The notes under the pieces were generated by a model that was given only the letters and a program-made list of their open reading frames with translations, was not told where the DNA came from and made no database searches. DNA of 25,759 nt from Candidatus Heimdallarchaeota archaeon (GTDB lineage: Archaea > Asgardarchaeota > Heimdallarchaeia > Heimdallarchaeales > Heimdallarchaeaceae), in the NCBI GenBank assembly GCA_021399395.1, contig JAAFKJ010000087.1, forward strand, positions 1-25,759, written 5' to 3'. The position numbers and the translations under genes are program-made. Below are positions 7,344 to 21,478 of this stretch, piece after piece. Position 1 is the stretch's first letter. The number at the start of each line of letters is the position of its first letter.

Positions 7344-8417
7344 TTAAATATGAACTGTTTCTCTCTGACCACCATCTACATTGATGTTCTGACCAGTAAT
7401 CCATCGGCTTTCTTCCGAGGCGAGAAATACGAGTACTGGTGCGATATCTGAATAAGGGTCACCAACCCGCTGCATCGCATTATCTTTCATCATTGACTTT
7501 ACCCATTCAGAGTAGTCTGGTGAGAGTTTGTCAACAATAGTGTCTGTAATGGCCACAGGACTGATTGTATTCACTCTTATGCCATCAGCTCCCCATTCTC
7601 GAGCAACAACCATTGAAAGGGCACGGATTGCCCCCTTATCAGCTGCATAAGAAGCATACATCTCCAGCCCTACTTGATAGGTACCTGAACAGAAATTGAT
7701 GATAGACGAAGATTTTCCTTTCATGTAAGGATAGCACAATTTCATCAGGTGCCAGTGGGCGTAAACACCAGTTTGTAAAGATTTGTCTAGCATTTCCACA
7801 TCTTGATCAAGGAAGAGCATTCTGTCCGCTTCAAAATTTGCATTATTGACCAGCACGTCAATCGTTCCAAATTTCTTCACGGTTTTATCAATAAATTTCT
7901 TCAAATCATCATATTTCGAGACATCGCATTTTTCAGCTAATACTTCAGCTCCTTCAGCCTCGCATAGCTCCGCTGTAATCTTCAGCTTGTCCACTGATCT
8001 GGCACATATAGCCAATTTTGCTCCTTCCTGAGCAAGACGGATGGACATCTGTTTACCGAGACCAGCACTAGCACCTGTAAGGATCACAACTTTTCCTTCC
8101 AGTCTTTTCGTGGGGTCAGGAATTTTCTCGATAGTATAACCTGGAGTTGAGGAAGTAGGTTCTTCGTCAACTTCTTGTTCTGTAGGAAGTTCTTCATCAT
8201 CCTCTAATATAGCCTGAAGATCAGTATCTATATCTGGGAGTTTCTCTTTAGGAAAACCCGATCCTGGCATGTTGGCAATAAACTTCAGAGTCATTCTAAA
8301 TCCCTTCTTCAGCTGAGGATCTTTGGATATTCCTGGTAAATGCTTCTCTAGAACAGCTTTTGCCTGGGGACTTTTCATTAAGTCACCCAATTTTGATTTA
8401 ATAGAATATTTTGTCAT
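7344..8417 (-). CDS. Short-chain dehydrogenase/reductase (SDR) with an additional ~70-aa N-terminal domain
   Basis: TGASAGLG nucleotide-binding motif, IDVLVNNA, catalytic YxxxK (YAADK), GIRVNTISP, ITGQNINVDGG; an acidic linker separates the N-terminal domain. Confidence 0.92.
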   Translation of the reverse strand: MTKYSIKSKLGDLMKSPQAKAVLEKHLPGISKDPQLKKGFRMTLKFIANMPGSGFPKEKLPDIDTDLQAILEDDEELPTEQEVDEEPTSSTPGYTIEKIPDPTKRLEGKVVILTGASAGLGKQMSIRLAQEGAKLAICARSVDKLKITAELCEAEGAEVLAEKCDVSKYDDLKKFIDKTVKKFGTIDVLVNNANFEADRMLFLDQDVEMLDKSLQTGVYAHWHLMKLCYPYMKGKSSSIINFCSGTYQVGLEMYASYAADKGAIRALSMVVAREWGADGIRVNTISPVAITDTIVDKLSPDYSEWVKSMMKDNAMQRVGDPYSDIAPVLVFLASEESRWITGQNINVDGGQRETVHI

Positions 8418-8651
8418 GTCCTAATTTTTTAATTGTATATATAAAAAGATAAGCCCTAAATGATGATCTACTATAATTGGACACAAATGTATCCAAATAT
8501 AAGGCTATTAGAAGATGGTTATGGATGTTAGGAAAAAGAGAGCAAGCACCGGCGCCCTAAAGTTGCCTCAAATAAGGTTTCATCTAATTTAAGTCTTTCA
8601 ACCTCAAGAAAATAATGAGTTGTAAAAAAATTGGAAAGAAAGTTCTGAATA

Positions 8652-9776
8652 TCAATTCTTCCTTTTCCTTCTAAATCTCAAACTTAAGGCTAAAACACCT
8701 ATAGATAGAACTACGTAGATAGAAACTGATGCTTCTTCTTCTAATAGTTCTTCAACATTCCCTAGTCCTGTAAATACTGGAATAGCATTTAGAGGGTACA
8801 AATCTTCTGAATTTGCGGGACCTCCTATTTGATATGAGCCGCTTCCACTCCAATCTTCCCAATAATTCCCTTCATTGCTATCATCATCATACCAAATGTT
8901 TGATGTACCTTCATCCTCTGCTTGAGAAGAACCTAGTACATTATTATCTATAAACACATTATGATGGATTTTATTTTTACTAGCTATATCGCGCAGGTAT
9001 ATACCATATTCAATATTACTAACCAGTGTATTATACATCAAGTCGTTATTCTGGGCATCTAACAATTTTATACCATACTCTGCATTATCTATACAAGTAT
9101 TATTAGCTACTATACAATCTGAAGCTGTCCCTAGACTTATTCCTATCCTAGTTTCTACGAATGTATTGTTTACTATTTTACAGTTATCAGTTTGATAAAA
9201 TGAGATACCATCCATAAAACTCTCATAAATAAGATTTTCTAAGATTACTGACCCATCTGCTGCTTCTAGATAAATACCTTGATTTACGTTAATAATATTG
9301 TTCCCCTCTATTAGAAGATTGAAACCGAATCTGACTTCCAATCCAATGCCTAAACATGTAATATAATTATTTATAACTCTACATACACCATCGTTAACTT
9401 TCTTTATGGTGATCCCTGGACCACGTGCATTAACATAGCAATTTTGTATGGTAAAATATTTCTTAGAATCTTCTATATATATACCTGGAATTCCAAATTG
9501 TTCCGAATTTATATTCAGGTTTTGAATCAAATAAGGATCTTCTTTAGTTCCTGAACCTGGGAAAGAATAATCGGTGAAATTATCATTTATTACATTAATT
9601 GTTGTGTGATTAACTAGTCCTGAAGGTGGTGGTGGAACTTCAATTGATATCAGAGTTTTTGTCTGTTCCATTTTGGTTGCGGATACATTAGAATTAGTAT
9701 AAGCAAAAGACATTAAAATTAAGAAAAATGATAATGCTGCTAGAATTTTGTTTCGATTTTTATTTTTTTTCGACAT
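8652..9776 (-). CDS. Right-handed parallel beta-helix (NosD/pectin-lyase-like) surface protein with C-terminal membrane anchor
   Basis: Signal peptide; GSGTKEDPYLI motif; repeated GIxL...N.I..N units; GNYWEDW and DLYPL end motifs; C-terminal TM followed by basic tail RFRRKRKN. Confidence 0.88.
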   Translation of the reverse strand: MSKKNKNRNKILAALSFFLILMSFAYTNSNVSATKMEQTKTLISIEVPPPPSGLVNHTTINVINDNFTDYSFPGSGTKEDPYLIQNLNINSEQFGIPGIYIEDSKKYFTIQNCYVNARGPGITIKKVNDGVCRVINNYITCLGIGLEVRFGFNLLIEGNNIINVNQGIYLEAADGSVILENLIYESFMDGISFYQTDNCKIVNNTFVETRIGISLGTASDCIVANNTCIDNAEYGIKLLDAQNNDLMYNTLVSNIEYGIYLRDIASKNKIHHNVFIDNNVLGSSQAEDEGTSNIWYDDDSNEGNYWEDWSGSGSYQIGGPANSEDLYPLNAIPVFTGLGNVEELLEEEASVSIYVVLSIGVLALSLRFRRKRKN

Positions 9777-10098
9777 TTCATAACTTCCTTATCGCAAATA
9801 GTAGCTAATCAAAATAGTTATTTAAACTTTTTGAATTAGAAAATATCAATTTTCTAAAGAAGACCCTGTCAGATTCTTATATAATTATGATCTATTTTCT
9901 TCTATTCATTTGCTACTGCTCTCATCTTCAGTGGTTCAACAAATAATATTGGTTCTAAATTGCATAGAATTCCTTTAATATTCAGCGAATCTTTGCTGAT
10001 ATCTTTGTTTTTACCTAACCATTTCTAATTGAGAATAACAATTATTCAAGACTCCATTTAAAGCTGATAGTATCAAAATCTATAGTATCCCTGGATTT

Positions 10099-10350
10099 TC
10101 ACTCCGAATCTTTAGAAGCTAAGTCTCCTTTTTGTTTCAAACCTGCTAAAACAATCCTTGTAACTTGTCTTCTTATCATAGCTAAACTTTGTCTGATTTC
10201 CACCAAAGGTCTTCTTTGACTAAGGTTATGTTCTAACCGATTAACAGATTCGTAGATATAAGTGTGATTAGTGGTGAAAACTTGATCATATTTCTTAAAT
10301 TTTTTTAAAATACTAGTAACTAAACTGAAATCTTCAATAGTAAAATCGAA
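10099..10350 (-). pseudogene. Possible decayed gene remnant
   Basis: 83 stop-free codons without an upstream start (FDFTIEDFSLVTSILKKFKKYDQVF...IRRQVTRIVLAGLKQKGDLASKDSE*) inside an ~800-bp stretch with no annotated ORF; flanked by in-frame stops. Confidence 0.3.
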
Positions 10351-10594
10351 TTATTAGAGATTCTTAGTCTATAATTCTGTTCTATCGGTTAGATAAGCAT
10401 TTTAAATGATTTGCTAGGAATTGGTCTTACCAAATAGTTTATCAATCCCTAAACAAAATTCGATTAAGTAGATTTAAACTAGTTAGTTATGTATGTGTTA
10501 ATTCTTTTAAAGATTTAGTGACATCAAATTAATGGGTTTTAGATTTATGGGATGTCACATCCTAAAGTGAAAAACTAATGGAGGAAAAGTCAAA

Positions 10595-10792
10595 ATGAAA
10601 GGCACAATCAAAAGAATCATGTATGATAGAAACTTTGGTTTTATCCAAGTTGAAGGAGAAGAAAAAGATATCTTTTTCCACAGATCTGGAACAACTGTTG
10701 AATTCGGTGATTTAAGAGAAGGAGATACTGTTGAATTCGATCTTGAAGATACTGATAGAGGACAACAAGCAATCAATCTTAAAACAGCATAA
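10595..10792 (+). CDS. csp: Cold-shock domain protein (CspA family), copy 1
   Basis: 65 aa; MKGTIK, RNP1 NFGFI, RNP2 DIFFHRS, VEFDLEDTDRGQQAINL; GGAGG Shine-Dalgarno upstream. Confidence 0.95.
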   Translation: MKGTIKRIMYDRNFGFIQVEGEEKDIFFHRSGTTVEFGDLREGDTVEFDLEDTDRGQQAINLKTA

Positions 10793-10808
10793 TTAACCTA
10801 AACAAATC

Positions 10809-10850
10809 GTACGATATTATTTTAATATCATACATTCTTTTCTTTCTTTT
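10809..10850 (+). terminator. Putative terminator of csp copy 1
   Basis: GATATTA-ttt-TAATATC hairpin followed by TTCTTTTCTTTCTTTT. Confidence 0.5.
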
Positions 10851-10900
10851 AATTTAAATCAAACGCACAATTTTTAATTATCATCACCAAATCTAGATGC

Positions 10901-11374
10901 ATGAAAGAAGCCATACAGTACTCTCTCAAAAACGGTTTAAAAGGAGCTTTTTCACATAGTAACCCTGTAGAAGCAATTGCTAGTTTGGATGTAAGTATAT
11001 CTAGAAAACGTTTAGCAGTCGATTCACATTCGATTTGGGAGATCCTGTTCCATATTGTTTTCTGGCAAGATATCTTTATTGAAAATATTAAAGGAAACGA
11101 TCCTGAATGGGATGACAAAGGCAGTTGGCCTACTGAAGAACATATGGAAAAAAAAGAGAATTTTGAACAATTAAAAGTTAGATTCAAAGAAGGAATTGAA
11201 GAAATCGAGAAATTGACTGAAACAGTTGATCTTGAAGAGAGATTGATTTTCGGGGATAATAGACCACCCAGATTGCAGTTTGTTATAGTTGCAATTACAC
11301 ACAATTCCTATCATACAGGTCAACTATTGATTCTAAGGAATATACTGAAAACCCCAAAAAAATTAGATGAGTAA
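10901..11374 (+). CDS. DinB/YfiT-like family protein
   Basis: HSIWEILFHIVFWQD and HNSYHTGQLLILR are typical DinB-family His motifs. Confidence 0.88.
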   Translation: MKEAIQYSLKNGLKGAFSHSNPVEAIASLDVSISRKRLAVDSHSIWEILFHIVFWQDIFIENIKGNDPEWDDKGSWPTEEHMEKKENFEQLKVRFKEGIEEIEKLTETVDLEERLIFGDNRPPRLQFVIVAITHNSYHTGQLLILRNILKTPKKLDE

Positions 11375-11400
11375 TTAAGAAGAGATGTCAAGATTTTACT

Positions 11401-12270
11401 TCAATCTTTCAATGGCCACATCTGATCAAAGAACTCCTTCGGAGGATGACTTAAATCATCATTTATCCTTGTATCATGGAGAATACAAGAGCAATATGAA
11501 TCTCCTGCAACTATTGTGTGTTCCATTGTTAAGATAAAATGCTCGTTATTATTATTGTAGCTTTGAAAATCTCCATAGCAAGCTGCGAGATATTTTAATT
11601 CGGTATCCGGTAACTCTTTTATTGCATCATTCCACATGCAAGTGTCCTTTCTCTGCGGAAACTTTCCATCCTCAATAACGCCTTGCGCGATTACCCAACC
11701 AATATTAGGAGGGTCTCCCTTTTTAGGTATTCTTGCTTCCCTGAATTCCTCTAAAGTCTCATAATTTGGTTTCTTTGGTGCAATTGATTTGACATAAGCT
11801 GTGATGTAGTCTTTGAATAGTTGAACAGCTTGGTTTCTTTCTAGAGCTTCAGTAAGCGCTTGAACACTATAATACCTGTGAAGAAGAAAAGATAGAATAT
11901 AGTTTTTATTAGGTACCTTGATTTTGTCTTTTGTCCAATTTCTCGTTGTATCAAAGTTCAGTAGTTGTAAATAATATGCCATACTGTTTCGTAATAAGTC
12001 AGGATACATTTTCAGATGCATAAAATCTTCAATTACATCTTCAGGAATGAGAACTTTTGCTTCTTTGTATATTTGCTTTGAGAGAAGAATGAACTTGGTA
12101 TTGAGCTTTACAACAAAACCAGGTAAGATATCTGGTTTGTCTTTCTTAATGAATCCTAATAGATAATTCAATCGTTTTAATATTGTCTTCTTTGCAAATT
12201 CTAAGGGTTGTAGCTCTTTCATTCTATCTAAATCACTTATATGATATTGACCTGTTTGAAATACTTCCAT
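11401..12270 (-). CDS. L-2-amino-thiazoline-4-carboxylic acid hydrolase-like (ATC hydrolase family) protein with N-terminal extension
   Basis: C-terminal Cys pattern CMWNDA...ACYGDF...LTMEHTIVAGDSYCSC resembles this family; actual activity unknown. Confidence 0.65.
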   Translation of the reverse strand: MEVFQTGQYHISDLDRMKELQPLEFAKKTILKRLNYLLGFIKKDKPDILPGFVVKLNTKFILLSKQIYKEAKVLIPEDVIEDFMHLKMYPDLLRNSMAYYLQLLNFDTTRNWTKDKIKVPNKNYILSFLLHRYYSVQALTEALERNQAVQLFKDYITAYVKSIAPKKPNYETLEEFREARIPKKGDPPNIGWVIAQGVIEDGKFPQRKDTCMWNDAIKELPDTELKYLAACYGDFQSYNNNNEHFILTMEHTIVAGDSYCSCILHDTRINDDLSHPPKEFFDQMWPLKD

Positions 12271-12282
12271 TTTATATTCCTC

Positions 12283-12402
12283 CTATTCTTTTCCCATGCT
12301 TTCTGTAAATTCCAAAGAAGGTTGTTCAGCTTCGGGGTGAACATGATTATTCCAATAAAATGTATTTGTTAAACTAAAACACTTGTGAGTTTCTATTTGC
12401 AT
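12283..12402 (-). CDS. Small ORF, 39 aa, directly upstream of the ATC-hydrolase-like gene
   Basis: MQIETHKCFSLTNTFYWNNHVHPEAEQPSLEFTESMGKE*; GGTGA SD-like motif 5 nt before ATG; its TAG overlaps the AGGAGG SD of the next gene. Confidence 0.45.
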   Translation of the reverse strand: MQIETHKCFSLTNTFYWNNHVHPEAEQPSLEFTESMGKE

Positions 12403-12555
12403 TGATTTCACCTATTCTAACAATCAATTACACATAATTGTTAAAAAAATGAGCACTTATTAAGATATCTTAGAACGTATAACAGTTTTTTATTGCGAAC
12501 TTTGAGATAATTGAATTTGATTAGTTTTTTAAAGTAGTATCGCTAAAATAAATAG

Positions 12556-12939
12556 ATGAAGTTCTATTGCAAGAAATGCAATTCACAGTTTGATGAAGAT
12601 TACAAAGATTTATTCGAAAATCTAAAATGCCCTAATTGCAAACACAGAGATATTGTCTTAAACTTCATTGTTCAAGGAGTACATCCTCCTGAAACAGGAT
12701 TAGGCATCTCCTATTTTGAATTTGAGGATGTATTGGAGGAAGGTAAAAATCACTATTTAGAACAATTCTTTGAAGATGAATTCAAACTTCAGTATTCTCG
12801 ATCAGGTACAGAATTTTCTTTGATTGATAAATCGGGAAAGGGAGTAAATCTAGAAGAAATCTATCACAAAACTCAGAACGATGGCAAACTCCAGAGAATA
12901 ATTTACAATATCTACTATGTTCTCCTACAAGATTTCTAA
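12556..12939 (+). CDS. Zinc-ribbon domain protein
   Basis: N-terminal CKKC...CPNC pair; rest unassigned. Confidence 0.75.
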   Translation: MKFYCKKCNSQFDEDYKDLFENLKCPNCKHRDIVLNFIVQGVHPPETGLGISYFEFEDVLEEGKNHYLEQFFEDEFKLQYSRSGTEFSLIDKSGKGVNLEEIYHKTQNDGKLQRIIYNIYYVLLQDF

Positions 12940-13163
12940 TAAACCATGGTAAAATTCTTTGAAAATTGAAAGTTTATCAAAATAGTCATTTTGGGTAAAT
13001 CGCATACTTTATTAAGAAGTAGTTTAGGAATTTATATGATTAAAAAGTGTTATTTAGATTTTGACGTAGTCTTTAAAAGATAGATAAATTTCTGATTGGC
13101 AGTTTTTAATTTGCGATGAAGTAGTAAAACACTTCTTCGCATAAATAATTAGGAGGAATCCTT

Positions 13164-13361
13164 GTGAAAGGCACAATTAAAAGAATTATGTATGATAGAA
13201 ACTTTGGTTTTATCCAAGTTGAAGGAGAAGAAGACGACATCTTTTTCCACAGATCCGGAACTAAAGGAGAGTTCCAAGATCTTAAAGAAGATTCTGAAGT
13301 CGAATTCGAAATTGAAGAAACCGATAGAGGTAAGCAAGCCACAAACGTGGAAGCTGTTTAG
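13164..13361 (+). CDS. csp: Cold-shock domain protein (CspA family), copy 2
   Basis: GTG start after AGGAGG; first 23 residues identical to copy 1; RNP1 and RNP2 motifs present. Confidence 0.95.
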   Translation: MKGTIKRIMYDRNFGFIQVEGEEDDIFFHRSGTKGEFQDLKEDSEVEFEIEETDRGKQATNVEAV

Positions 13362-13503
13362 ATACATTAAAAAAAACAACTGATTAGGAATCAGAAAATA
13401 AGTCAAAGAATAAAGTCAGTTCTTAACTGTAAAATATTCTTTGCACACCTATTTTTTTCTAAATTTCGTTTATTTTTATTCAAACTCAACCAGAGATGAT
13501 ATT

Positions 13504-14754
13504 TCACACTAATTTTATGCGAATATATAAATCAACTTCCTGCTTATTTTTCAAGACCCCACTAACATAGAAAGTCTCATAATTACGGATGCCTTGCTCT
13601 CCTAAGGTTAAATCCAATTTTACTTCTTCAGGATCTTTCTTATCTATTTTCCAGAAAGATGGTAAAAAGTCTAAATTATATTCATATCCCTTATTCTTAA
13701 TTATTGAAAGAATGTTTTCAACAGTTGTTGATCTTGGAAGTTTTAATCTTTCAATTAAAGCTGCGTTTTTACCACAAAGAACACATTTCTTATTTGGAGG
13801 TTTTTCGAAGTAGAAAAACTTACCAACCAAGCCATTATAAATTACGTATTCAGCATTTACAGTACCTAGTTCAATTCCCTTCACATGATGCAAAAGTTTC
13901 AGTGCTTCTTGCGATTGAAGTGATGCAATTACAGCATTTATCGTAATAATAGTAGGATCATGTTGATCTACCATCTTGACTACTTCGTCAATAGAGAACA
14001 GGTTTTCTTTTGGAAAATGCTCTTTAGTTAGGTTATTTGCATAGTTCAAAACAACTTTCATTTCAGCTTGAACACCTGTATCTGGTGGTCTATTATGTTT
14101 CGATTCAAAGTATAATTGTCCTTTCAATAGACAATGTGATCTTTTTCTTGGGATTCCTACAAGAGTACATGCTGCTAATGTTTCTCTTTCTCTCTCAGGT
14201 TGTGGGTCACATTGAAGACATGCATTTTGCCCTGGAAGGTATGTATAGACATGTCCATAATACGTTACTGTCCCTCCATCTATCAAGGGTTTCTTATAAT
14301 GAACAGCTCTTCTGTTGAGTTCTCCTCTTGCAGTTACTGAATCCAAACCCGAGATTAACAAATCAGCTGAAACATAGATTTCTGGATCAACATCTTCTAG
14401 ATTTGAATGATGCCAGATGTATCTACAATAAGGATTTATTCGTTTAAGAGTTCTTGCTGCAACTCTAGATTTAGGTTCTCCTTCATCGGCATCAGAAAAT
14501 AAAATTTGTCTATTTAGATTTGAGTATTCAATTATATCTAAATCTATTAGATGTAATGTTCCAACACCAGCCATTGCAAGATTCTTCGCAACTTCAGTCC
14601 CTAAACCACCAATTCCTACAATGACGACTGTAGAATCTTTCAAAGCTTTCTGATTCCATCCAGGTAATCTTAGTTGTCTATCAAATCTTTTTCTTTCTTC
14701 TTTTGAAAATGTCTCATCAAAAAAATTAGACTTGTTTTCTTTGTTTTTACTCAT
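13504..14754 (-). CDS. Ubiquitin-like activating enzyme E1 (ThiF/UBA family, UBA3/UBA2-like architecture)
   Basis: RFDRQLR, GIGGLG, DLDIIEYSNLNRQILF, PLIDGGT; Zn pairs CLQC and CVLC; catalytic Cys region AACTLVGIPRKRSHC; C-terminal ubiquitin-fold-like domain (TTVENIL...LTLGEQGI). Confidence 0.93.
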   Translation of the reverse strand: MSKNKENKSNFFDETFSKEERKRFDRQLRLPGWNQKALKDSTVVIVGIGGLGTEVAKNLAMAGVGTLHLIDLDIIEYSNLNRQILFSDADEGEPKSRVAARTLKRINPYCRYIWHHSNLEDVDPEIYVSADLLISGLDSVTARGELNRRAVHYKKPLIDGGTVTYYGHVYTYLPGQNACLQCDPQPERERETLAACTLVGIPRKRSHCLLKGQLYFESKHNRPPDTGVQAEMKVVLNYANNLTKEHFPKENLFSIDEVVKMVDQHDPTIITINAVIASLQSQEALKLLHHVKGIELGTVNAEYVIYNGLVGKFFYFEKPPNKKCVLCGKNAALIERLKLPRSTTVENILSIIKNKGYEYNLDFLPSFWKIDKKDPEEVKLDLTLGEQGIRNYETFYVSGVLKNKQEVDLYIRIKLV

Positions 14755-14802
14755 TATTGTACATCTCTTAGGATTCTATTTAACATAAATTATTCTTGTT
14801 TT

Positions 14803-14856
14803 TGAAAAAATGAAAAGAAAGGAGAAACTATTTTCTTTCAAAAAGAAAAATAGTTT
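14803..14856 (-). terminator. Hairpin plus U-rich tract between the Ubl and E1 genes
   Basis: Imperfect inverted repeat AAACTATTTTCTT/AAGAAAAATAGTTT (14825-14856), followed on the minus strand by CTCCTTTCTTTTCATTTTTTC. Confidence 0.5.
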
Positions 14857-14860
14857 TAGT

Positions 14861-15220
14861 TTATCCAGCTGTTGAGACAGGGATAAGTAGAATAGTGTCT
14901 CCGTCTTCCACTCCATAATCTGCTAATGTATCGTCAGGATCGCAGGTTCTTCCAGCATGTGACAAGTGAAATTCATCTGGAGGTAATCCAAAGATTTGAC
15001 TGACAGTATATTTGATATCACCAACGGGCGCATCAGTAGCTACGACAAGCTTTTCCTGTTTTGGACTTGGTCCAATTGTACTTTGGAAATAAACGCTAAT
15101 CTTCTTACTTGCAGGAGTCTTAGACTTTTCAGGAGTTTTAGAGATAATTTCGTCTTCTAATACCTCTTCTTCTTCTTCTTCAAAAGATAATTCTTCAAAT
15201 TCTTCGCTCATTTTTATCAT
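14861..15220 (-). CDS. Ubiquitin-like protein with acidic N-terminal extension, ending ...STAG
   Basis: GLPPDEFHLSHAGRTCDPDDTLADYGVEDGDTILL aligns with ubiquitin [35 protein letters not shown]; adjacent to E1. The true start may be the second Met (15211). Confidence 0.92.
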   Translation of the reverse strand: MIKMSEEFEELSFEEEEEEVLEDEIISKTPEKSKTPASKKISVYFQSTIGPSPKQEKLVVATDAPVGDIKYTVSQIFGLPPDEFHLSHAGRTCDPDDTLADYGVEDGDTILLIPVSTAG

Positions 15221-15454
15221 TCCTAGTTTAATACAACATGTGTATATCTGTTTGGAATATTAAAAAATTACCCTTTTAGGTATAAAAAACATTCTTATTT
15301 AGTAAGATAAATTAGAAAAACAGATTGATAGTATCTAAAAATCTATAAAACACATTGAATATATCCTAAAATGGGAATAATCAGTTACAATTAGATGTAA
15401 AAAATTGAGTTGTTAAGTAATCTATGAAAGGCAAACTAAGAGTGTGACTTACAG

Positions 15455-16183
15455 ATGAATGATAAAAACAAAAAGAAACGACCTTCATCCAAGAAACCGA
15501 GGCAAAAAATCCCTATAGATTCGAAGATACCTCAACAAAAAAAACCATCTAGCAAAATACCGAAACAAAGAGTTAGCGATGAAGACCTGTTACCACCAAG
15601 AAGACAGAGATCTAAAAAAGAAACTCCTGCCCCTAGTAAGTCAAGGCTAAGACAAGATGAGATAAGAAAATCAAACAAAGGAGTAGCTAAACAAGAAATT
15701 TACACTAAGAAACCAAAAGGAGAGAGATTTGTTGATCAACAGAAGAGAAGTAAGGGTATTCCGAAACAGAAGATTCCCAAAACTAAAATCCCAAAACAGG
15801 ATCAATTAGACGAAGCTAAAGAGAAGAATATCGTTCCAGAGGATGAAGAAACAAGGAAAAAAGAAAAGCGAGAATCTATTCCACCAAGGAGGGAAAAGTT
15901 CAAAGAAATAGAAACTCTAGATTCAAAAGCTGTTGAGAAGGAAGAGAGAGAGAAGAAAGAAGATCATCCTCCTGCAAACAACAAAGACCAATTTTCTGAA
16001 ACTCAGAAGCATGAATCAAAGGCTTTACCCAAAGATGAAAGAGTAAGAGAGAAAAAGGAAAGAGAAGCACCAGCTGCTAGAGAAATTAGTGAGATTATTG
16101 AGGAGAAGCGTCCTACTCAAAAAACTCCTAGTCAAAAATATCCTCAACAGACTAAAAGACCTAAACAAAAGAAACCTAAGTGA
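15455..16183 (+). CDS. Lys/Glu/Arg/Pro/Gln-rich low-complexity, probably disordered protein with KIPKQ-like repeats
   Basis: 242-aa ORF almost lacking hydrophobic core residues; repeats SKIPQQK, SKIPKQR, KGIPKQKIPKTKIPKQ. Confidence 0.7.
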   Translation: MNDKNKKKRPSSKKPRQKIPIDSKIPQQKKPSSKIPKQRVSDEDLLPPRRQRSKKETPAPSKSRLRQDEIRKSNKGVAKQEIYTKKPKGERFVDQQKRSKGIPKQKIPKTKIPKQDQLDEAKEKNIVPEDEETRKKEKRESIPPRREKFKEIETLDSKAVEKEEREKKEDHPPANNKDQFSETQKHESKALPKDERVREKKEREAPAAREISEIIEEKRPTQKTPSQKYPQQTKRPKQKKPK

Positions 16184-16212
16184 TGGTCCTTTTGTTAAAG
16201 CATTTTTTCAGT

Positions 16213-16806
16213 TCACACAAATAGCATTAAGAGTGAAGAATAGAAATAAACTACTGCAAATACCATCAAGAAGAGATTCTCTAAGAGGAATATAGATGTT
16301 AAAATGTAGGTTGTTGGTATAATCAACAGGAGTAGAAAACCAAAAAGTTTAGGAGGGATTCCTTTTTCACTTGTGCCTTTCATTCTGATGAAAGGATATC
16401 TGATGAAAGTTCTGAATATTAGAAAATTGCTGAAGATGTAGTAAGGTAATAGAATGAAATCCACAATATTAATGTAAAAATAATATGTGGTAGTACCAAC
16501 ATCAAAAGTACTTGTCGAAATTAAGTTTGAACCATAATCATAAATTCCTAGAAGAAATTGAGTAAGAACAACAATCACAGGAATTAGCGGGACAATTAAC
16601 ACAAAAAAAACTTCGTTGAATGTAGCATTGTGTTTAAGATAGTATATACTTCGTATCATAATGAATAGTGTTAGAAAAGCAAATATTGCTGCCATTATGA
16701 AAATCTTCCCCATATCACTGTTTTCTTCTATGAAGAAATAGATAGATACACCTATCAACGATAAAGAAATAAGAAACGCAGTGGAGAGTTGTGTAATGGT
16801 TCTCAA
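16213..16806 (-). CDS. Multi-pass membrane protein (~6 TM), RING-less paralogue of the membrane domain of 17198..18328
   Basis: TTG start after AAGGTG; hydrophobic throughout; shares SD, YxKHN, FxLxxP, NxxxxxLxP and PxI...G motifs in the same order as the RING protein. Confidence 0.78.
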   Translation of the reverse strand: MRTITQLSTAFLISLSLIGVSIYFFIEENSDMGKIFIMAAIFAFLTLFIMIRSIYYLKHNATFNEVFFVLIVPLIPVIVVLTQFLLGIYDYGSNLISTSTFDVGTTTYYFYINIVDFILLPYYIFSNFLIFRTFIRYPFIRMKGTSEKGIPPKLFGFLLLLIIPTTYILTSIFLLENLFLMVFAVVYFYSSLLMLFV

Positions 16807-17038
16807 AGTAACACCTTCTTCTTTTATAGTTCTTACATCCTAATTTTTAAATTATTGTATATGTTTTTTTTGGCATTTTACTATTCTTTTATGGGTTTAT
16901 ATACTCAATTAGCTTTCGATAAATAGAGAGGATTTACATCTTAAAAAGCCTATGCGACCACCTCCAATTGGATTGTGGTCAAGCTTAAAAAGAAGATGAA
17001 TCCAACTCAAAAACAACTATCTATATATGAGAAAGTTC

Positions 17039-17104
17039 CAAGCGATCCGAAAACCGTACCTAAACGTACGGTGAACGGGGTAGGAGGGTATGTGATGTAC
17101 CCCC
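17039..17104 (+). repeat. Structured intergenic element copy A (candidate ncRNA or REP/MITE-like repeat)
   Basis: GC-rich CAAGCGATCCG-[ACCGTAC/GTACGGT hairpin]-GAACGGGGTAGGA-[GGGTAT/GTACCC hairpin]; homologous to 20493-20555. Confidence 0.65.
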
Positions 17105-17197
17105 GTAGAATTTGTGAGGACCATAGGGAATGACACACACAACGTCTACGAAATGGCTCAACTATATTTGACTAATATGCAAACATGACTAGTCACA

Positions 17198-18328
17198 TCA
17201 TAGCTTCTCAATCACTTTCTCTATATAGATTTTTACAGTTACACGATATTTTGGATTATTAACGTATCTAGTTGAGATAGGTTGATTACATCTTGCACAC
17301 AATCTAGATTTCTGGAACCAGTTAAGAAATTCATCTTCATGTGCTGGATATTTGCAATTAGGACATAGTATTATTTTTCTTGATTCTTTTTTATTAAAAT
17401 CCATATAACAAATAATACATTTCATCTCTTCTTTCTTTGGAGTACCAATTGGAAACATGCTTTTAGTAACAGTAGTTGTGGTTTTAGTAGTCTTTACCAT
17501 TTTTCTTTTCGATGATGGTACGTCAATACCTGGGGCAACTCTAGCGGAAGAGGTAGTACTTCTAGTAGCTCTCCTTGTAGTAGACCTAGAAGTTGTTGAA
17601 GTGCTTCTGGATCTTGTTGGTACAGACCTTGTCCCACTTCTCGAAGATGCTGTAACTTGACCTCTTCTTCGAGTTGCACTTGAAGATCCTGTTGAGGTAG
17701 TTCTTCTTGTAGAACTTCTTGCTGAGACTGTTACCTCTCTTCGTGACTTATTAAATGCAACAATAACAAAATATCTGAAAATGTAAACTAAGTATAATAT
17801 AACAAAGATGAAACAAACAAAATCTATTTGCCAATTGATAAAGAAACCAATCAAGAATGTCAGAATAAAGAAAGAATGGAGCAAGAAAGGAATTTTTTTA
17901 CCTCTATTTATTTTTCTGTTGATAGCAATTCCAGGCCATTTTCCTGAATAGAACTTACTGAAGAATATGGAGAGGATAATTACAGGAACTATCAAAGAGA
18001 TAGAAATTAAATTGAAGAACATTAGTTCCGAACCTCCACTTGACCGAATTGTGAAGATTTCAACAGTTAATGCAACAGGAGAGATGTAGTTTCCCATTAG
18101 CAAGACTGCATAAGGGAGTAGTAGAAATTGACTACTAGCTAAAATGGAGTTGTGTTTCTTATAGTGTCGTCTTTCCAGGAGAAATTTTAGAGCTGCTACT
18201 GTATACAGTGTAATAAAGAAAATCATTAACGTTGTTGCCAAGTCACTTTGAATAATTAGATATAGAATCCCTACGGTTAAACCTACAATTGATATCGCTA
18301 AGTAGGTTTTCCAATTATTCAATTCCAA
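17198..18328 (-). CDS. Multi-pass membrane RING-variant protein (putative E3 ligase)
   Basis: About 6 N-terminal TM helices, a long S/T/R-rich linker, and C-terminal CIIC-x14-CPNC-x3(KYPA)H-EDEF-LNW-x6-CARC; immediately downstream of E2 and JAMM genes. Confidence 0.85.
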   Translation of the reverse strand: MELNNWKTYLAISIVGLTVGILYLIIQSDLATTLMIFFITLYTVAALKFLLERRHYKKHNSILASSQFLLLPYAVLLMGNYISPVALTVEIFTIRSSGGSELMFFNLISISLIVPVIILSIFFSKFYSGKWPGIAINRKINRGKKIPFLLHSFFILTFLIGFFINWQIDFVCFIFVILYLVYIFRYFVIVAFNKSRREVTVSARSSTRRTTSTGSSSATRRRGQVTASSRSGTRSVPTRSRSTSTTSRSTTRRATRSTTSSARVAPGIDVPSSKRKMVKTTKTTTTVTKSMFPIGTPKKEEMKCIICYMDFNKKESRKIILCPNCKYPAHEDEFLNWFQKSRLCARCNQPISTRYVNNPKYRVTVKIYIEKVIEKL

Positions 18329-18350
18329 CTTTATACATCTCTAAATTCTT

Positions 18351-19070
18351 TTAATCCTTATTCAGCTTATTTTTCATGAACATGTTAATTGACTCAAAAC
18401 ATGCTTCACTGCTCATGCCTTTAATCTCGCAAGAAAGTTCATAGTAATTCTTTCTATCTCGATGAATTCGAAATACTCCTACCCCATAATTATCTGGAGC
18501 AATCATCAGGGGGTCGATGACTAGAGCTATTGACTTATTCCAAAATGTCTGATATCTACGATGTGTTTGGAAGTCATCACCACTGAGAAATGGTGTATAA
18601 CTTGGATGTGAATGAGCCCAACCTATGATAAAATGTTCGTTATCTTTTTTATTGAATATTTCAGTGAAAATCCTTTGATCTACTATCTCTACACTTACAG
18701 CATCACCTTGGTCAACAGGCCAATAGTCTTCAACATACACCTGTTCTAATGGAGTATCTTCGTGTCGTATTTTACCTGTCAATAGGCCTATAATTTCTAC
18801 CCACTCACTTTTTGGGATTCCCTTGTTAGCATAGGTTAAGGAATGTTTAGCAAGTTTGAGATAGGCTTTAGGATTTATCATTATTTCAGATCTTGTTTGT
18901 ATTTGAAGTGCTTCTTCTGTTATTGATTCAACACTAATGTCCTCTGAACTTTCTACTTGATCTTCAAAGATTTCATCTATTTTATGAAGACCTAGTGCTT
19001 TTTCTATTGCTTCAACTTTTTTCAAAAGAATTTTGTATTCTTCTGGAAGATTGTCTTCTTCTTTTCCCAT
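18351..19070 (-). CDS. JAMM/MPN+ metallo-isopeptidase (Rpn11/CSN5-like)
   Basis: VEIIGLLTG (catalytic Glu), GWAHSHPSYTPFLSGDD (HxH-x7-S-x2-D), ALVIDP; GGTGA SD upstream. Confidence 0.93.
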   Translation of the reverse strand: MGKEEDNLPEEYKILLKKVEAIEKALGLHKIDEIFEDQVESSEDISVESITEEALQIQTRSEIMINPKAYLKLAKHSLTYANKGIPKSEWVEIIGLLTGKIRHEDTPLEQVYVEDYWPVDQGDAVSVEIVDQRIFTEIFNKKDNEHFIIGWAHSHPSYTPFLSGDDFQTHRRYQTFWNKSIALVIDPLMIAPDNYGVGVFRIHRDRKNYYELSCEIKGMSSEACFESINMFMKNKLNKD

Positions 19071-19100
19071 TTTTTAATCACCTAAATTTGTGAAGAGTTT

Positions 19101-19631
19101 TTACCAGAAAGACTTTGCATATTTCTTGCTGATAGTATTTGCTTTTTTAATGAATTTCTTCTTATTATTTAAAAATTCCAAAGCAGCTTCTTTATTGAAA
19201 ACATCCTTTGGATTAACATAAGCTCCATCTATATTGAACATAGCTAGAATTGAGTGTACAACTGTAGTGATATTCTTTGCAGGTGACCATCCATCATGTT
19301 TTCCTATTAACTCATTGTCAACTAGAGCGAGACAAATGTTACGCTTCTTTGGATATTCTTTAGGATTTGGCCAGAAATTAGGATGCCAAATTGGTGTATG
19401 TAGTCTTACAAATGGAGGTTTCATAGGATAATTTGGTCCAAAGAATATCTCCAACTTATATTTTCCTCCAGCATATGGAGTGCCTTTTGGACCTACAAAC
19501 CCGACTGCAAGATGATCCATAGACTTCTTCTTTACAGGAAAAGATTTAACTTGAGCTATTATCCCTTCTTTGTGCAATTTTCTAAGTGCATCATAGTCTT
19601 TTATTACGCGCTGTTTTCGCATTATTGCCAC
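19101..19631 (-). CDS. Ubiquitin-conjugating enzyme E2 (UBC fold)
   Basis: GPKGTPYAGGKYKLEIFFGPNYPMKPP, TPIWHPN, catalytic ICL, WSPA, NKEAA. Confidence 0.95.
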   Translation of the reverse strand: MAIMRKQRVIKDYDALRKLHKEGIIAQVKSFPVKKKSMDHLAVGFVGPKGTPYAGGKYKLEIFFGPNYPMKPPFVRLHTPIWHPNFWPNPKEYPKKRNICLALVDNELIGKHDGWSPAKNITTVVHSILAMFNIDGAYVNPKDVFNKEAALEFLNNKKKFIKKANTISKKYAKSFW

Positions 19632-19777
19632 CGTTTATTTTATCAAAATCAATTCGGTTTGAACCCAGAATCAACAAGTATTTGTTCGAGGATTAATACT
19701 TAAACTTTCTTTTAAAGGTATACAAATTCAATTATAGCATTCATCTTCCTTAGTATTAGATAAAAGATAATAAAGGG

Positions 19778-20347
19778 TTAGTAAAGCTGCCATAATACAT
19801 ATTGTTCTGAACCTAGTTGAAGTAAAAATCTTTGCTCCAAAGATGCTTCTTCTATAATAGCAAATTCTTTTTCAGAAGGTCTCATCCCTAGATAGAACAG
19901 TTTTTCATATGGCCAGTCATTCTTGAACCATTTAATCAGCTGTTCTAGTATTTTGATGAAATACCCTTGATTCCATCCAGTTGGTGTAATCCAGAAAGAG
20001 ATAGCAGCATCATTATCTACCAACTCTAGATGATCACACATTCTATCATTGAAAAATGCGAATTTAAGAAATGGTGAGATAGGTTTTACAAATATACAAC
20101 CATAACATACTGTTTCTTCTTCATCTAAAATGGTATAAGCAAATTCTATTCTGTTATTGTGATCTAGTTCATGTTTAGCTATTTGTTCCAAGTTTACCTC
20201 TTCAGGAAAACCTTCTGGTCTGAAACCACTTTCAATCGCAGCTTGATAATCTAGCTCATTATCTGTACTTCGAAGTTGTCTTATCTTAATACCATTGAAA
20301 ACTAACTCTTTTGGTACTTTTTTATCTTCAGGGAAGAACGAGTTCAT
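19778..20347 (-). CDS. GNAT-like N-acetyltransferase (RimJ/RimL-like)
   Basis: IRQLRSTDNELDY, FAYTILD...YGCIFVKP, ISFWI, WFKNDWPY pattern. Confidence 0.6.
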   Translation of the reverse strand: MNSFFPEDKKVPKELVFNGIKIRQLRSTDNELDYQAAIESGFRPEGFPEEVNLEQIAKHELDHNNRIEFAYTILDEEETVCYGCIFVKPISPFLKFAFFNDRMCDHLELVDNDAAISFWITPTGWNQGYFIKILEQLIKWFKNDWPYEKLFYLGMRPSEKEFAIIEEASLEQRFLLQLGSEQYVLWQLY

Positions 20348-20492
20348 GGTCTGATACTTTTTCCAACCCTTATAAGTGGTTTCTTGTACATTTTTTGGTG
20401 TTTAAATAAGCCAGTGTAGAATATATGTTGAAGGATTGTAGCTATGCACCAACTTCATGGTGATTCTCGGGGTTACATCCAACGAACAGTAA

Positions 20493-20555
20493 CAAGCGAC
20501 CCGTAAGCATCTTGCAAGAAGATGTGGGCGGTGTAGGAAGGGATGTGACGTCCCT
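20493..20555 (+). repeat. Structured intergenic element copy B (candidate ncRNA or REP/MITE-like repeat)
   Basis: CAAGCGACCCG-[CATCTT/AAGATG hairpin]-GGGCGGTGTAGGA-[AGGGATG/CGTCCCT hairpin]; homologous to 17039-17104. Confidence 0.65.
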
Positions 20556-20701
20556 ATGATGTGTCCTAGACACTTCTAAAGAATTTGTACAAAATTCATG
20601 TCATAAACATTAACAAATCAGTATATTGAACTGTCTAAATGTGAGATGTCTCAATTCCTCTGAAGATAGATTTAATTAGTCAATTCCATAGAATCTAACC
20701 G

Positions 20702-21478
20702 ATGGAAATCATTGACGCTCATGCCAATATACTTTCTTCTCCAGATTACGTTCTTGAACTAATGACTGAGATGAATAGGTTGGAAATTTCCAAAGCTTGT
20801 ATAAGCGGTTTGGGTTCAATGTTCAATTCTGTAAGCAACAAAGAAATTCTCAAAATTGTCGATGATTTTTCTCCCAGATTTGTTGGTGCTTATTTTGTTC
20901 GACCTGGAGTAACTAATGTCATGGAGATACAAGATGCCCATTCCTTAGGCTTTCGGATGCTCAAAGTAGCTATTCCAAAGAAACCTTACAATGATCAAGC
21001 TTTCCTTCCACTCTGGGGAGCTGCTCAAAGATTAAATATGCCGATCCTTTTTCATACTGGCCTAATAACTGTTGCAGAAGCTTCCCCAAAAGATATGATT
21101 TTATCATTAGATATGCATCCTCTAAGAATCGAACCAATAGCTAATTCCTTCCCAGATCTAAACATCATTCTTTCTCAACTTGGCGGTCATTGGAACAGAG
21201 ATGCAGCTGAACTCGCCCGGATGAGGGCTAATGTATATGTTGATCTAACTGGAGAACAAGATGGTTGGCGTCAAAGGATAGATGTAGAGGGATTAGAGAA
21301 GTATCTTTATTGGCCAAATGCTTTCCAAGATTTAGTTTTTGGTACGAATACTGAACCATCACAAATTGAACAGATTCTCAGCGAAGATAGAAATAGATAT
21401 ACTAAACTTAATCTTGATGAAAATACTAAGGAAATGATATTCTCGGGAAATATTAAGAAAATGCTTGGAATACATTAA
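20702..21478 (+). CDS. Amidohydrolase_2-family TIM-barrel protein with degenerate metal ligands
   Basis: IIDAHAN, PILFHTG, FPDLNIILSQLGG, NVYVDLT, LVFGTN, IFSGNIKKMLG. Confidence 0.85.
   Translation: MEIIDAHANILSSPDYVLELMTEMNRLEISKACISGLGSMFNSVSNKEILKIVDDFSPRFVGAYFVRPGVTNVMEIQDAHSLGFRMLKVAIPKKPYNDQAFLPLWGAAQRLNMPILFHTGLITVAEASPKDMILSLDMHPLRIEPIANSFPDLNIILSQLGGHWNRDAAELARMRANVYVDLTGEQDGWRQRIDVEGLEKYLYWPNAFQDLVFGTNTEPSQIEQILSEDRNRYTKLNLDENTKEMIFSGNIKKMLGIH

Follow-up and report, generated by a model that had tools for sequence, protein, structure and literature searches.

A Heimdallarchaeal locus for ubiquitin-like conjugation with a polytopic membrane RING candidate, and its relatives across Asgard archaea

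The window analysed here, a stretch of 25,759 nucleotides from Candidatus Heimdallarchaeota archaeon (contig JAAFKJ010000087.1 of assembly GCA_021399395.1; C179 in our numbering of this 2.8 Mb, 81.8% complete genome), carries a six-gene ubiquitin-like conjugation locus at positions 13504–19631 of the minus strand. The locus encodes an E2 conjugating enzyme, an Rpn11-like JAMM/MPN metalloprotease, a six-span membrane protein with a C-terminal RING-fold domain (hereafter, TM-RING), a RING-less paralogue of its membrane domain (TM2), a ubiquitin-fold modifier (Ubl) and an E1 activating enzyme. In an initial annotation of the window, these had been described as six co-oriented genes forming a complete and self-contained cascade directed at membranes; all six are present on the minus strand, and the catalytic residues of E1, E2 and JAMM are intact. 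The locus is a rearranged copy of an Asgard-wide operon with the order Ubl-E1-E2-JAMM-TMRING. We consider it probable, with some reserve, that its products form a dedicated ubiquitin-like cascade acting at the cytoplasmic face of the cell membrane, with TM-RING as the E3 ligase. The interpretation given in the initial annotation is partly supported: it needs to be widened to the Asgard-wide operon and narrowed from quality control to membrane-directed conjugation.

The candidate membrane ligase and its conjugation partners

TM-RING (17198–18328, minus strand, as are all genes below unless stated) is a protein of 376 amino acids read from a TTG at 18328; the gene caller chose the TTG at 18322. 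Hydropathy analysis identified six transmembrane (TM) segments at approximately residues 8–26, 33–51, 61–87, 104–122, 146–164 and 171–189. Loops rich in Lys and Arg (residues 52–60, 123–145 and after 190) are positioned such that both termini, and hence the C-terminal domain, are expected to be cytoplasmic. An AF2 model calculated from a 45-sequence alignment (mean pLDDT 79.9) is divided into three parts. The N-terminal six-helix membrane domain (residues 1–207, 17708–18328) has block means of 81–98 and is followed by a disordered linker rich in Ser, Thr and Arg (approximately residues 208–289, 17462–17707; pLDDT <50 at 210–287), whose length and sequence differ among homologues. The cytoplasmic C-terminal RING-fold domain (residues 290–376 and the stop codon, 17198–17461) is compact, with values of 89–96. 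These features bear out the earlier description of a polytopic E3 candidate.

To judge from the model, the C-terminal domain has a RING/U-box fold. A Foldseek search with the whole protein returned RING and U-box domains as top matches (3lrq, Rad18, RNF126, the HRD1 zinc finger, RNF165 and EL5), with target-normalised TM-scores up to 0.78 (RNF165) and 0.71 (HRD1 zinc finger). Among the VIA-align matches listed, 41 of 50 align to residues 285–376 and are RING/U-box domains, the best being 3lrq_B (Z 7.2, root-mean-square deviation (rmsd) 3.5 over 69 residues, 23% identity) and Ring1b (Z 7.0). RING domains follow the consensus C-x2-C-x9-39-C-x1-3-H-x2-3-C/H-x2-C-x4-48-C-x2-C, with eight Cys/His ligands. 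The spacing in TM-RING is C304-x2-C307-x14-C322-x2-C325-x4-H330-x2-E333-x10-C344-x2-C347, with four residues between ligands 4 and 5, and eleven residues of the domain are invariant in 45 Asgard-wide sequences (C304, C307, C322, C325, P328, H330, E333, W337, C344, R346 and C347). Ile306, just before the second Cys, is at least 90% conserved and, together with the invariant Trp337, occupies what we take to be the positions that contact the E2 in RING-H2 domains. A soluble 203-residue Asgard RING protein from the profile search (P0178) has the same local sequence, CPNCHYAGHRDHFMAWL against CPNCKYPAHEDEFLNWF, with His at the position of Glu333; since this His is ligand 6 of the aligned RING, Glu333 occupies a ligand position.

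The membrane domain matched no Pfam or NCBIfam family. No usable match was returned from the ESM Atlas for residues 1–205 and none by Foldseek, and the VIA-wide search gave generic helical matches only (Z ≤ 8.3); HRD1 (9uav_B; Z 7.9, rmsd 3.4 over 114 residues) was tied there with unrelated helical proteins and lies within the noise. Where TM3 begins on the cytoplasmic side, a polar motif (Y56, A64, S65, Q67, F68, P72) is conserved. A profile search of 1.84 billion representative proteins yielded 98 TM-RING members at E ≤ 1e-30; outside the family it gave no relative over the full length, the weaker matches covering the RING or the linker only. The database homologues are all named 'hypothetical protein' with the exception of a single JGI name, 'membrane protein implicated in regulation of membrane protease activity', and none carries a precomputed Pfam domain.

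TM2 (16213–16806; 197 amino acids) has the same six-TM layout by hydropathy and no Pfam family above threshold. Comparison with the TM-RING profile by hhalign gave probabilities of 91% (E 1e-6, 166 columns) and 95.9% (E 6e-9, 138 columns), and reciprocal HMM searches gave cross-hits at about 5e-6. Both proteins share the motif Y-x-K-H-N...A-[ST]-x-[QN] at the cytoplasmic entry of TM3. By these comparisons TM2 is a true paralogue of the TM-RING membrane domain, in agreement with its first description as a RING-less membrane paralogue.

For the enzymes, invariance was computed on alignments of orthologues from the fetched loci (E1 n=62, E2 n=67, JAMM n=62). The E2 (19101–19631; 176 amino acids; Pfam UQ_con, E 1e-27) starts with a GTG at 19631, an ATG at codon 4 being the alternative. 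Its top relative in the PDB is UBE2T (phmmer 1.6e-15), and UBE2T, UBE2N, UBE2L3 and UBC9 all lie at about 1e-15 to 1e-13. In comparison to human UBE2T there are seven extra residues between the HPN motif and the catalytic Cys and then three and four later, which accounts for the insertions pointed out in the initial annotation. H83, P84, N85, C100, W115 and P117 are invariant, and so are the insertion residues W87, P90, E92, Y93 and R97. The JAMM protease (18351–19070; 239 amino acids; Pfam JAB, E 2.1e-12) is closest in the PDB to the Caldiarchaeum Rpn11-like protein (6fju_A, 1.4e-13) and then to eukaryotic Rpn11/PSMD14 (4e-12); its motif residues E92, H153, H155, S163 and D166 are invariant, and it probably processes Ubl precursors and removes the modifier from conjugates.

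The E1 (13504–14754; 416 amino acids; Pfam ThiF, E 3e-57) comprises an adenylation domain with a GxGGxG motif, Cys196 in an AACT motif (we take this to be where E1 enzymes have the catalytic Cys of their PxCT motif) and a CxxC...CxxC zinc site. Invariant residues are G47, G49, G50 and G52 of the GxGGxG motif, R82, D138, C179, C182, C196, C208, C324 and C327. A C-terminal extension of about 85 residues is possibly an E2-recruiting ubiquitin-fold domain. The best PDB matches are UBA3 (4.3e-35, query residues 40–354), UBA1 (1.8e-34) and SAE2 (6e-33), with MoeB and UBA5 (3.6e-14) more distant. Taken together, the catalytic equipment of E1, E2 and JAMM appears intact and of eukaryote type. A reading of the Ubl-E1 pair as a sulfur-carrier system of ThiS/MoaD type with unrelated neighbours could draw on the NCBIfam MoeB/ThiF models, which match the E1 adenylation domain up to 4e-39; these matches are all far below the models' own cut-offs, the E1 has a eukaryote-type catalytic-Cys insertion and aligns with UBA3 over residues 40–354, the modifier is ubiquitin-like and not ThiS/MoaD-like, the pair is tightly linked to E2, JAMM and RING, and the genome holds a separate ThiF/MoeB-like gene on contig C136. 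The sulfur-carrier reading was therefore rejected and is, in our judgement, scarcely credible.

The Ubl (14861–15220; 119 amino acids; Pfam ubiquitin, E 3.4e-8) consists of a disordered acidic N-terminal extension (residues 1–39) with conserved EFEEL and SKTP motifs and a beta-grasp core; in the AF2 model the core has a pLDDT of about 90 and the 39 N-terminal residues are disordered. Foldseek places Caldiarchaeum ubiquitin first (6fno_D; E 7e-8, rmsd 1.6 over 79 columns at 30% identity), ahead of ubiquitin, ISG15 and NEDD8. The protein ends ...IPVSTAG, exactly at Gly119, and thus has the non-GG terminus noted at the outset. In an Asgard-wide alignment (n=35), I113, P114, S116, T117, A118 and G119 are invariant, and F8, E9, L11, K28 and P30 of the extension are at least 90% conserved. 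A wider survey covered 117 Ubl-like open reading frames (ORFs) from 63 loci among the 80 species loci described below. IPxSxAG is found in 103 of these and a GG-type end in none; the remainder are 13 non-conjugatable domains without a terminal Gly and one truncated ORF. The residue before AG in the 103 is Thr in 83, Ile in 15, Val in four and Arg in one. Seventy-two of them stop at the Gly and 31 carry 1–7 extra residues. Variable tails after a fixed Gly would be the mark expected of precursors trimmed by the linked JAMM, by analogy with the Caldiarchaeum system, for which JAMM-type trimming of the ubiquitin precursor has been shown (PMC6043591; here and below, papers are cited for the portions of their text that were available).

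A UFM1-like identity was considered for the Ubl, Asgard Ufm1 homologues having been reported in 2026 (PMC12962969), and was rejected: there is no Pfam Ufm1 match and no UFM1 entry among the Foldseek matches listed. A UFM1-type system was likewise rejected, as the E1 is far nearer UBA3 (4e-35) than UBA5 (3.6e-14) and the E2 retains HPN. Separately, a Loki-type locus (L064, 3417–4214, minus strand) and its equivalents in 12 other loci encode proteins of about 120–265 residues, depending on the ORF call, whose C-terminal Ubl domain lacks a final Gly and ends IPSRK...; the 265-residue ORF of L064 has two N-terminal TM helices and is adjoined by a winged helix-turn-helix regulator and a second, longer AG-ended Ubl. 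This two-TM protein is a further hint of a membrane-organised pathway.

Conservation of the operon and layout of the locus

Within the order, full-length TM-RING is found in 29 of 46 other genomes, and within the genus in 20 of 24. Gene order was compared in 20 fetched loci of the order, onto each of which all window proteins were mapped. All 11 same-genus loci, two of them cut by contig ends, have the arrangement E2-JAMM-TMRING-TM2-(Lys-rich gene, opposite strand)-Ubl-E1, and one sister-genus locus matches it except that the Lys-rich gene is missing. In a second family, three loci read Ubl-Ubl-E1-E2-JAMM-TMRING; four more there have E2-JAMM-TMRING, or JAMM-TMRING at a contig end, with E1 at most 4 kb away and TM2 nearby in some. 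Gene order varies between families and membership is kept.

A scan with one genome per species returned 88 TM-RING relatives, of which 80 were kept. Their titles include Heimdall (among them AB_125), Promethearchaeota/Loki, Hod, Hermod, Thor, Odin, Borrarchaeum and Promethearchaeum, and loci with Loki, Hod, Hermod, Thor, Odin and Borr titles repeat the order Ubl-(Ubl)-E1-E2-JAMM-TMRING. E2-JAMM lies directly upstream of TM-RING in 55 of the 60 more distant loci, with E1 as well in 53, and most of the 60 have one or two Ubl genes upstream. Where a distant locus has no E2, a contig end cuts it short; two more have no E1, and one of them shows the gene order of the sister genus, with E1 downstream, and ends first. 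The synteny search across Asgard genomes that had been set in advance as a check on the initial annotation thus found the genes co-conserved, near and far. The linkage is far beyond chance, the set recurring in dozens of genomes.

The distribution is patchy. A full-length TM-RING profile matches 115 of 301 sampled genomes of the phylum (E ≤ 1e-25), with 59 of 68 and 17 of 21 in two families and 0 of 76, 0 of 19 and 0 of 11 in others. Four genomes without TM-RING, 92–95% complete, are also without the Ubl, and their only E2 is a paralogue of 36–40% identity; for these reasons the operon genes are present or absent together. TM2 is found in 22 of the 80 species loci, every one in a Heimdall-titled group, and forms a single clade (support 99/99) on a stem branch so long (3.93) that the duplication is not datable from the tree. 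A complete Loki-type Ubl-E1-E2-JAMM-TMRING operon was also seen on a contig titled Candidatus Nanopelagicaceae bacterium, an actinobacterial metagenome-assembled genome (MAG); its TM-RING stands in the tree beside that of a Promethearchaeota contig (L096), with very short branches, and the contig (L116) is probably mis-binned.

TM-RING, the AG terminus and the E2 insertion are accordingly family traits found Asgard-wide, and only the RING-less paralogue, the split gene order and the Lys-rich gene are specific to the lineage. The initial annotation had taken the polytopic RING, the non-GG end and the E2 insertions as marks of a distinct pathway. That the system is a separate one is upheld; that these marks are special to this locus or lineage is not.

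The separateness is seen in the same genome. Contig C180, outside the window, carries a canonical Asgard Ub-ESCRT locus at about 8162–16230, with genes for Vps4, Vps25/22-like proteins, a 470-residue UEV-Vps23/28-like protein, a compact E1 of 335 residues, a 78-residue ubiquitin ending RTKGGS and a Rab-like GTPase. The two E1 enzymes share 42% identity over 181 residues (the first 181), and the window Ubl and the C180 ubiquitin do not match each other by tblastn at 1e-3. A canonical 158-residue E2 is encoded on contig C18. Because the genome also holds an ESCRT-linked GG-ubiquitin with its own compact E1, the window system is a second, parallel pathway, and the distinction originally drawn from the canonical Ub-ESCRT locus is borne out.

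Between the two half-operons of the window lies a plus-strand gene (15455–16183) for a protein of 242 residues rich in Lys (22%), Glu (12%) and Pro (11%), with no assigned function and no Pfam, NCBIfam or PADLOC family match. It was detected by tblastn in all 11 same-genus loci (40–74% identity, opposite strand) and in none of the nine other loci of the order, so that the break shown in the initial annotation corresponds to a real, conserved gene. The protein could conceivably be a dedicated substrate or a nucleic-acid binder. Gaps of 30 and 22 bp separate E2, JAMM and TM-RING, and 106 bp separate Ubl and E1; the spacer between TM-RING and TM2 (16807–17197) measures 391 bp here versus 63–85 bp in sister genomes and is enlarged by a dispersed repeat. 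Blastn with the spacer gave 26 other matches on 25 contigs of the same genome (68–89% identity), several at contig ends, and the repeat looks like a miniature inverted-repeat transposable element or an insertion-sequence end. A 52-codon plus-strand ORF (16975–17133) lies within it.

The other 16 ORFs of the window have unrelated functions (methyltransferase, SDR, NosD-like, DinB, MFS, GNATs and others). No ESCRT or proteasome gene, as had been noted earlier, and no further RING gene is among them. A search of 12900–20800 against Rfam (E ≤ 0.1) gave no match. Promoter and terminator scans were at background (26 promoter-like sites versus a shuffled mean of 25.8, with a sigma-70 model that is not applicable to archaea). 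DNA of the window is found in sediment and cold-seep metagenome runs from three studies, and no RNA run is listed. On the E1 side, the cluster is adjoined by a gene for a cold-shock-domain protein (13164–13361, plus strand; CSD, E 1.8e-17), present there in 8 of 11 same-genus loci, and a zinc-ribbon protein (12556–12939, plus strand) recurs near that end in 6 of 11. Further out are a 289-residue protein (11401–12270, minus strand) with a weak ATC_hydrolase match, which is accompanied in several sister genomes by as many as four tandem paralogues next to the cluster, and an ORF of 1081 residues (686–3931, minus strand) without a Pfam family at E ≤ 0.001.

Proposed mechanism and its alternatives

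The scheme put forward here builds on the domain identities, intact catalytic residues, topology, fold, paralogy, co-conservation and co-absence described above; we infer the chemistry of each step, the docking of E2 on the RING, the formation of a heteromer and what the targets are. E1 would adenylate the C-terminal Gly119 of the Ubl, hold the modifier on Cys196 as a thioester and hand it to Cys100 of the cognate E2. The charged E2 would then dock on the cytoplasmic RING-fold domain of TM-RING, which as E3 would bring it near targets embedded in or bound to the membrane. The Rpn11-like JAMM would trim the precursors that carry residues after the Gly, as in relatives of the window Ubl, which itself already ends at Gly, and would also take the tag off. 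In the Heimdall-group lineage, the ancestral order Ubl-E1-E2-JAMM-TMRING would have been rearranged and a RING-less copy of the membrane domain added, and TM2 probably serves the ligase as a partner or as a subunit that receives substrates. The cascade operates in parallel with the genome's ESCRT-linked GG-ubiquitin and is distinct from it.

Several points weigh against this reading. Only seven of the eight canonical zinc-ligand positions of TM-RING hold Cys or His, the sixth being the invariant Glu333. Pfam gives sub-threshold RING matches only, the gathering cut-offs not being reached by zf-RING_16 (16.7 bits, cut-off 27.4, E 0.0057), Prok-RING_1 (16.3 bits, cut-off 29.1, E 0.0096) or zf-RING_2 (16.1 bits, cut-off 27.3, E 0.014). 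The whole-protein Foldseek E-values are weak (≥ 0.09), and a VIA Z-score of about 7 is middling by the tool's own scale. Many active RING domains have an Arg or Lys 'linchpin' after the last Cys; the residue there in this family is Asn, Ser or Ala. All members are assigned to a cascade from sequences and models, and the AG terminus, in place of GG, is a putative substrate of E1 and JAMM. An opposite-strand gene and a repeat insertion interrupt the operon in its own genome, so that co-transcription of all six genes is impossible here, and no substrate, Cdc48 or proteasome gene is linked to it within the window.

The RING features bear most directly on a reading in which the cascade is real and the membrane zinc-finger protein is an anchor, a receptor or a regulated substrate (for instance, Ubl-binding or E2-sequestering) rather than a ligase, conjugation being E3-independent or served by soluble RING proteins encoded elsewhere in the genome. 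The degenerate RING (Glu at ligand 6, a ligand 4–5 spacing of four residues, no Pfam model over threshold) would fit this, as would the several other RING-domain ORFs of about 190–420 residues in the same genome, and modification could take place on the long linker of Ser, Thr and Arg or on the abundant Lys close to the RING. It is answered by the presence of a TM-RING ORF in 79 of the 80 species loci (the gene by which these were selected), by its place directly after E2-JAMM in 55 of 60 distant loci, by the match of the whole domain to the E2-binding RING/U-box fold and by the conservation of the E2-contact-type residues Ile306 and Trp337. We regard a non-ligase role as unlikely, if worth keeping in mind.

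With TM-RING taken as the ligase, the target could be a membrane lipid head group or another amine of the membrane surface, presented by the six-TM domain to the charged E2. An E3 integral to the membrane with a flexible tether of about 80 residues would suit such chemistry; the modifier ends in a single Gly after a small residue, which invites a likening to the Atg8 system with its single-Gly modifier, and the polar motif of TM3 (Y56, A64, S65, Q67, F68, P72) could form a small-molecule site. A precedent is Tul1, a transmembrane RING E3 that ubiquitinates phosphatidylethanolamine with canonical E1 and E2 (PMC12203941), but it ubiquitinates proteins too (same source), and the structural search of the TM domain gave generic helical matches only, with no Tul1 or Atg homology. 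This reading, drawn by analogy, we hold to be improbable, though a live alternative.

A bolder proposal, speculative and rather doubtful but possible, joins these threads to the membrane-directed cascade favoured here. The core ancestral Ubl cascade of Asgard archaea would be a membrane machine with the six-TM RING as sole dedicated E3, in the Heimdall group a probable heteromer with the RING-less paralogue; it would read transmembrane or lipid features and put the Ala-Gly modifier on membrane proteins or lipid head groups, parallel to the ESCRT-linked GG-ubiquitin. It would be a prokaryotic forerunner, in design and possibly by descent, of ERAD/Dsc-type ligases (ERAD, endoplasmic-reticulum-associated degradation) that pre-dates internal membranes.

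The attachment of ubiquitin at membranes, as in ERAD, endosomal sorting and organelle quality control, is regarded as an innovation of eukaryotes. In Asgard archaea, their nearest archaeal relatives, a conserved operon encodes a dedicated candidate ligase that is itself an integral membrane protein. The operon has a distinct Ala-Gly modifier, and the genome studied here holds, next to it, a second system with ESCRT-linked GG-ubiquitin. For eukaryogenesis this suggests that parallel Ubl pathways had already specialised in Asgard archaea, and that membrane-directed conjugation may predate eukaryotes, as an ancestral and not a derived trait. The proteins are of small size, and reconstitution of the soluble parts (E1, E2, Ubl, JAMM and the RING domain) should be easy. 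The operon is also found in MAGs titled Promethearchaeum sp., a genus that includes a cultured species, in which conjugates could therefore be sought in vivo.

Comparison with known systems

In the bacterial Bil/Cap2 systems a Ubl, E1, E2 and JAB protease are likewise encoded together; they differ from the window system in being without a RING and without a membrane component. The shared part list would allow the operon to be an antiviral defence module of the Bil or CBASS-Cap2 kind that tags virus proteins at the membrane, and in PADLOC the adenylation domain is matched by E1-E2 (Cap2) models with E-values down to 4.8e-18 and by BilD with 1.2e-6. However, this match is to the generic adenylation core and is far weaker than those to ThiF (3e-57) and UBA3 (4e-35), the JAB match reaches only 2.5e-4, and E2, Ubl, TM-RING and TM2 have no PADLOC match. 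Most carrier genomes have a single full-length copy, with housekeeping-type flanks rather than a defence island. Membership of a defence system was rejected on the strength of the PADLOC results, and a defence role seems very unlikely.

In Hrd1, Doa10/MARCH6, Asi and Tul1/Dsc, a membrane domain of several spans is joined to a cytosolic RING, to which a soluble E2 is recruited. TM-RING is of the same design, and its pairing with a RING-less partner recalls the heteromeric ligase complexes known from eukaryotes. No sequence relationship to these ligases was detected with Pfam or in the search of 1.84 billion proteins, and the HRD1 match of Z 7.9 is within noise. Nor did a search confined to the window's 16 other ORFs and the Loki-type locus L064 turn up a Cdc48, Der1-like or proteasome partner. 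The initial annotation had proposed quality control of the Hrd1/Doa10/Asi kind. That comparison is reduced to an analogy of design, there being no link to Cdc48, Der1 or the proteasome and no clear homology of the TM domain; any quality-control role, like any substrates, would be putative.

The ESCRT-linked ubiquitin system of Asgard archaea, described for Heimdall AB_125 and Odin (PMC9192718), belongs to the same phylum, uses the same enzyme classes and is present in the window's own genome. For Helarchaeia, an E1/E2/RING cascade acting on UEV-Vps23 has been reconstituted with pro-ubiquitin, and the RING E3 was purified and used in surface plasmon resonance and in vitro assays (bioRxiv 10.1101/2023.07.25.550441). 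In the genome studied here that system differs in its separate locus, its GG(S) ubiquitin, its 335-residue E1 and its position beside Vps4, ESCRT-II-like and UEV-Vps23/28 genes, whereas the window system is without an ESCRT neighbour. AB_125 has four E2-like proteins, two with a catalytic Cys (PMC9192718), and one of the AB_125 E2 proteins is probably the orthologue of the window E2.

The closest parallel in parts is the Caldiarchaeum subterraneum operon of ubiquitin, E1, E2, small RING finger protein (srfp) and Rpn11, which has been reconstituted in vitro (PMC5654768, PMC6043591). The part list is the same, the best solved relatives of the window Ubl and JAMM are Caldiarchaeum proteins, and the logic of a JAMM-trimmed precursor fits the tailed AG forms found among relatives of the window Ubl. 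In the available text of those papers, however, the E3 is a small RING finger protein for which no membrane span is described, and the modifier ends Gly-Gly; the window system has a six-TM RING with Glu at ligand 6, an Ala-Gly end, a conserved acidic N-terminal extension of the Ubl and the E2 insertion. Operons of Ub/E1/E2/RING/Rpn11-MPN are known from Caldiarchaeum and from Asgard archaea (PMC5654768, PMC6043591, PMC4571572), and the operon traced here very probably corresponds to the 'Ub-E1-E2-E3-MPN' operon to which earlier papers refer, in their available text, in general terms for Loki and other Asgard archaea. Our literature search, which left supplementary tables and subscription papers (Spang 2015, Zaremba-Niedzwiedzka 2017, Liu 2021) that may list the genes outside its scope, found no transmembrane or polytopic RING and no AG-ended modifier reported for Asgard operons.

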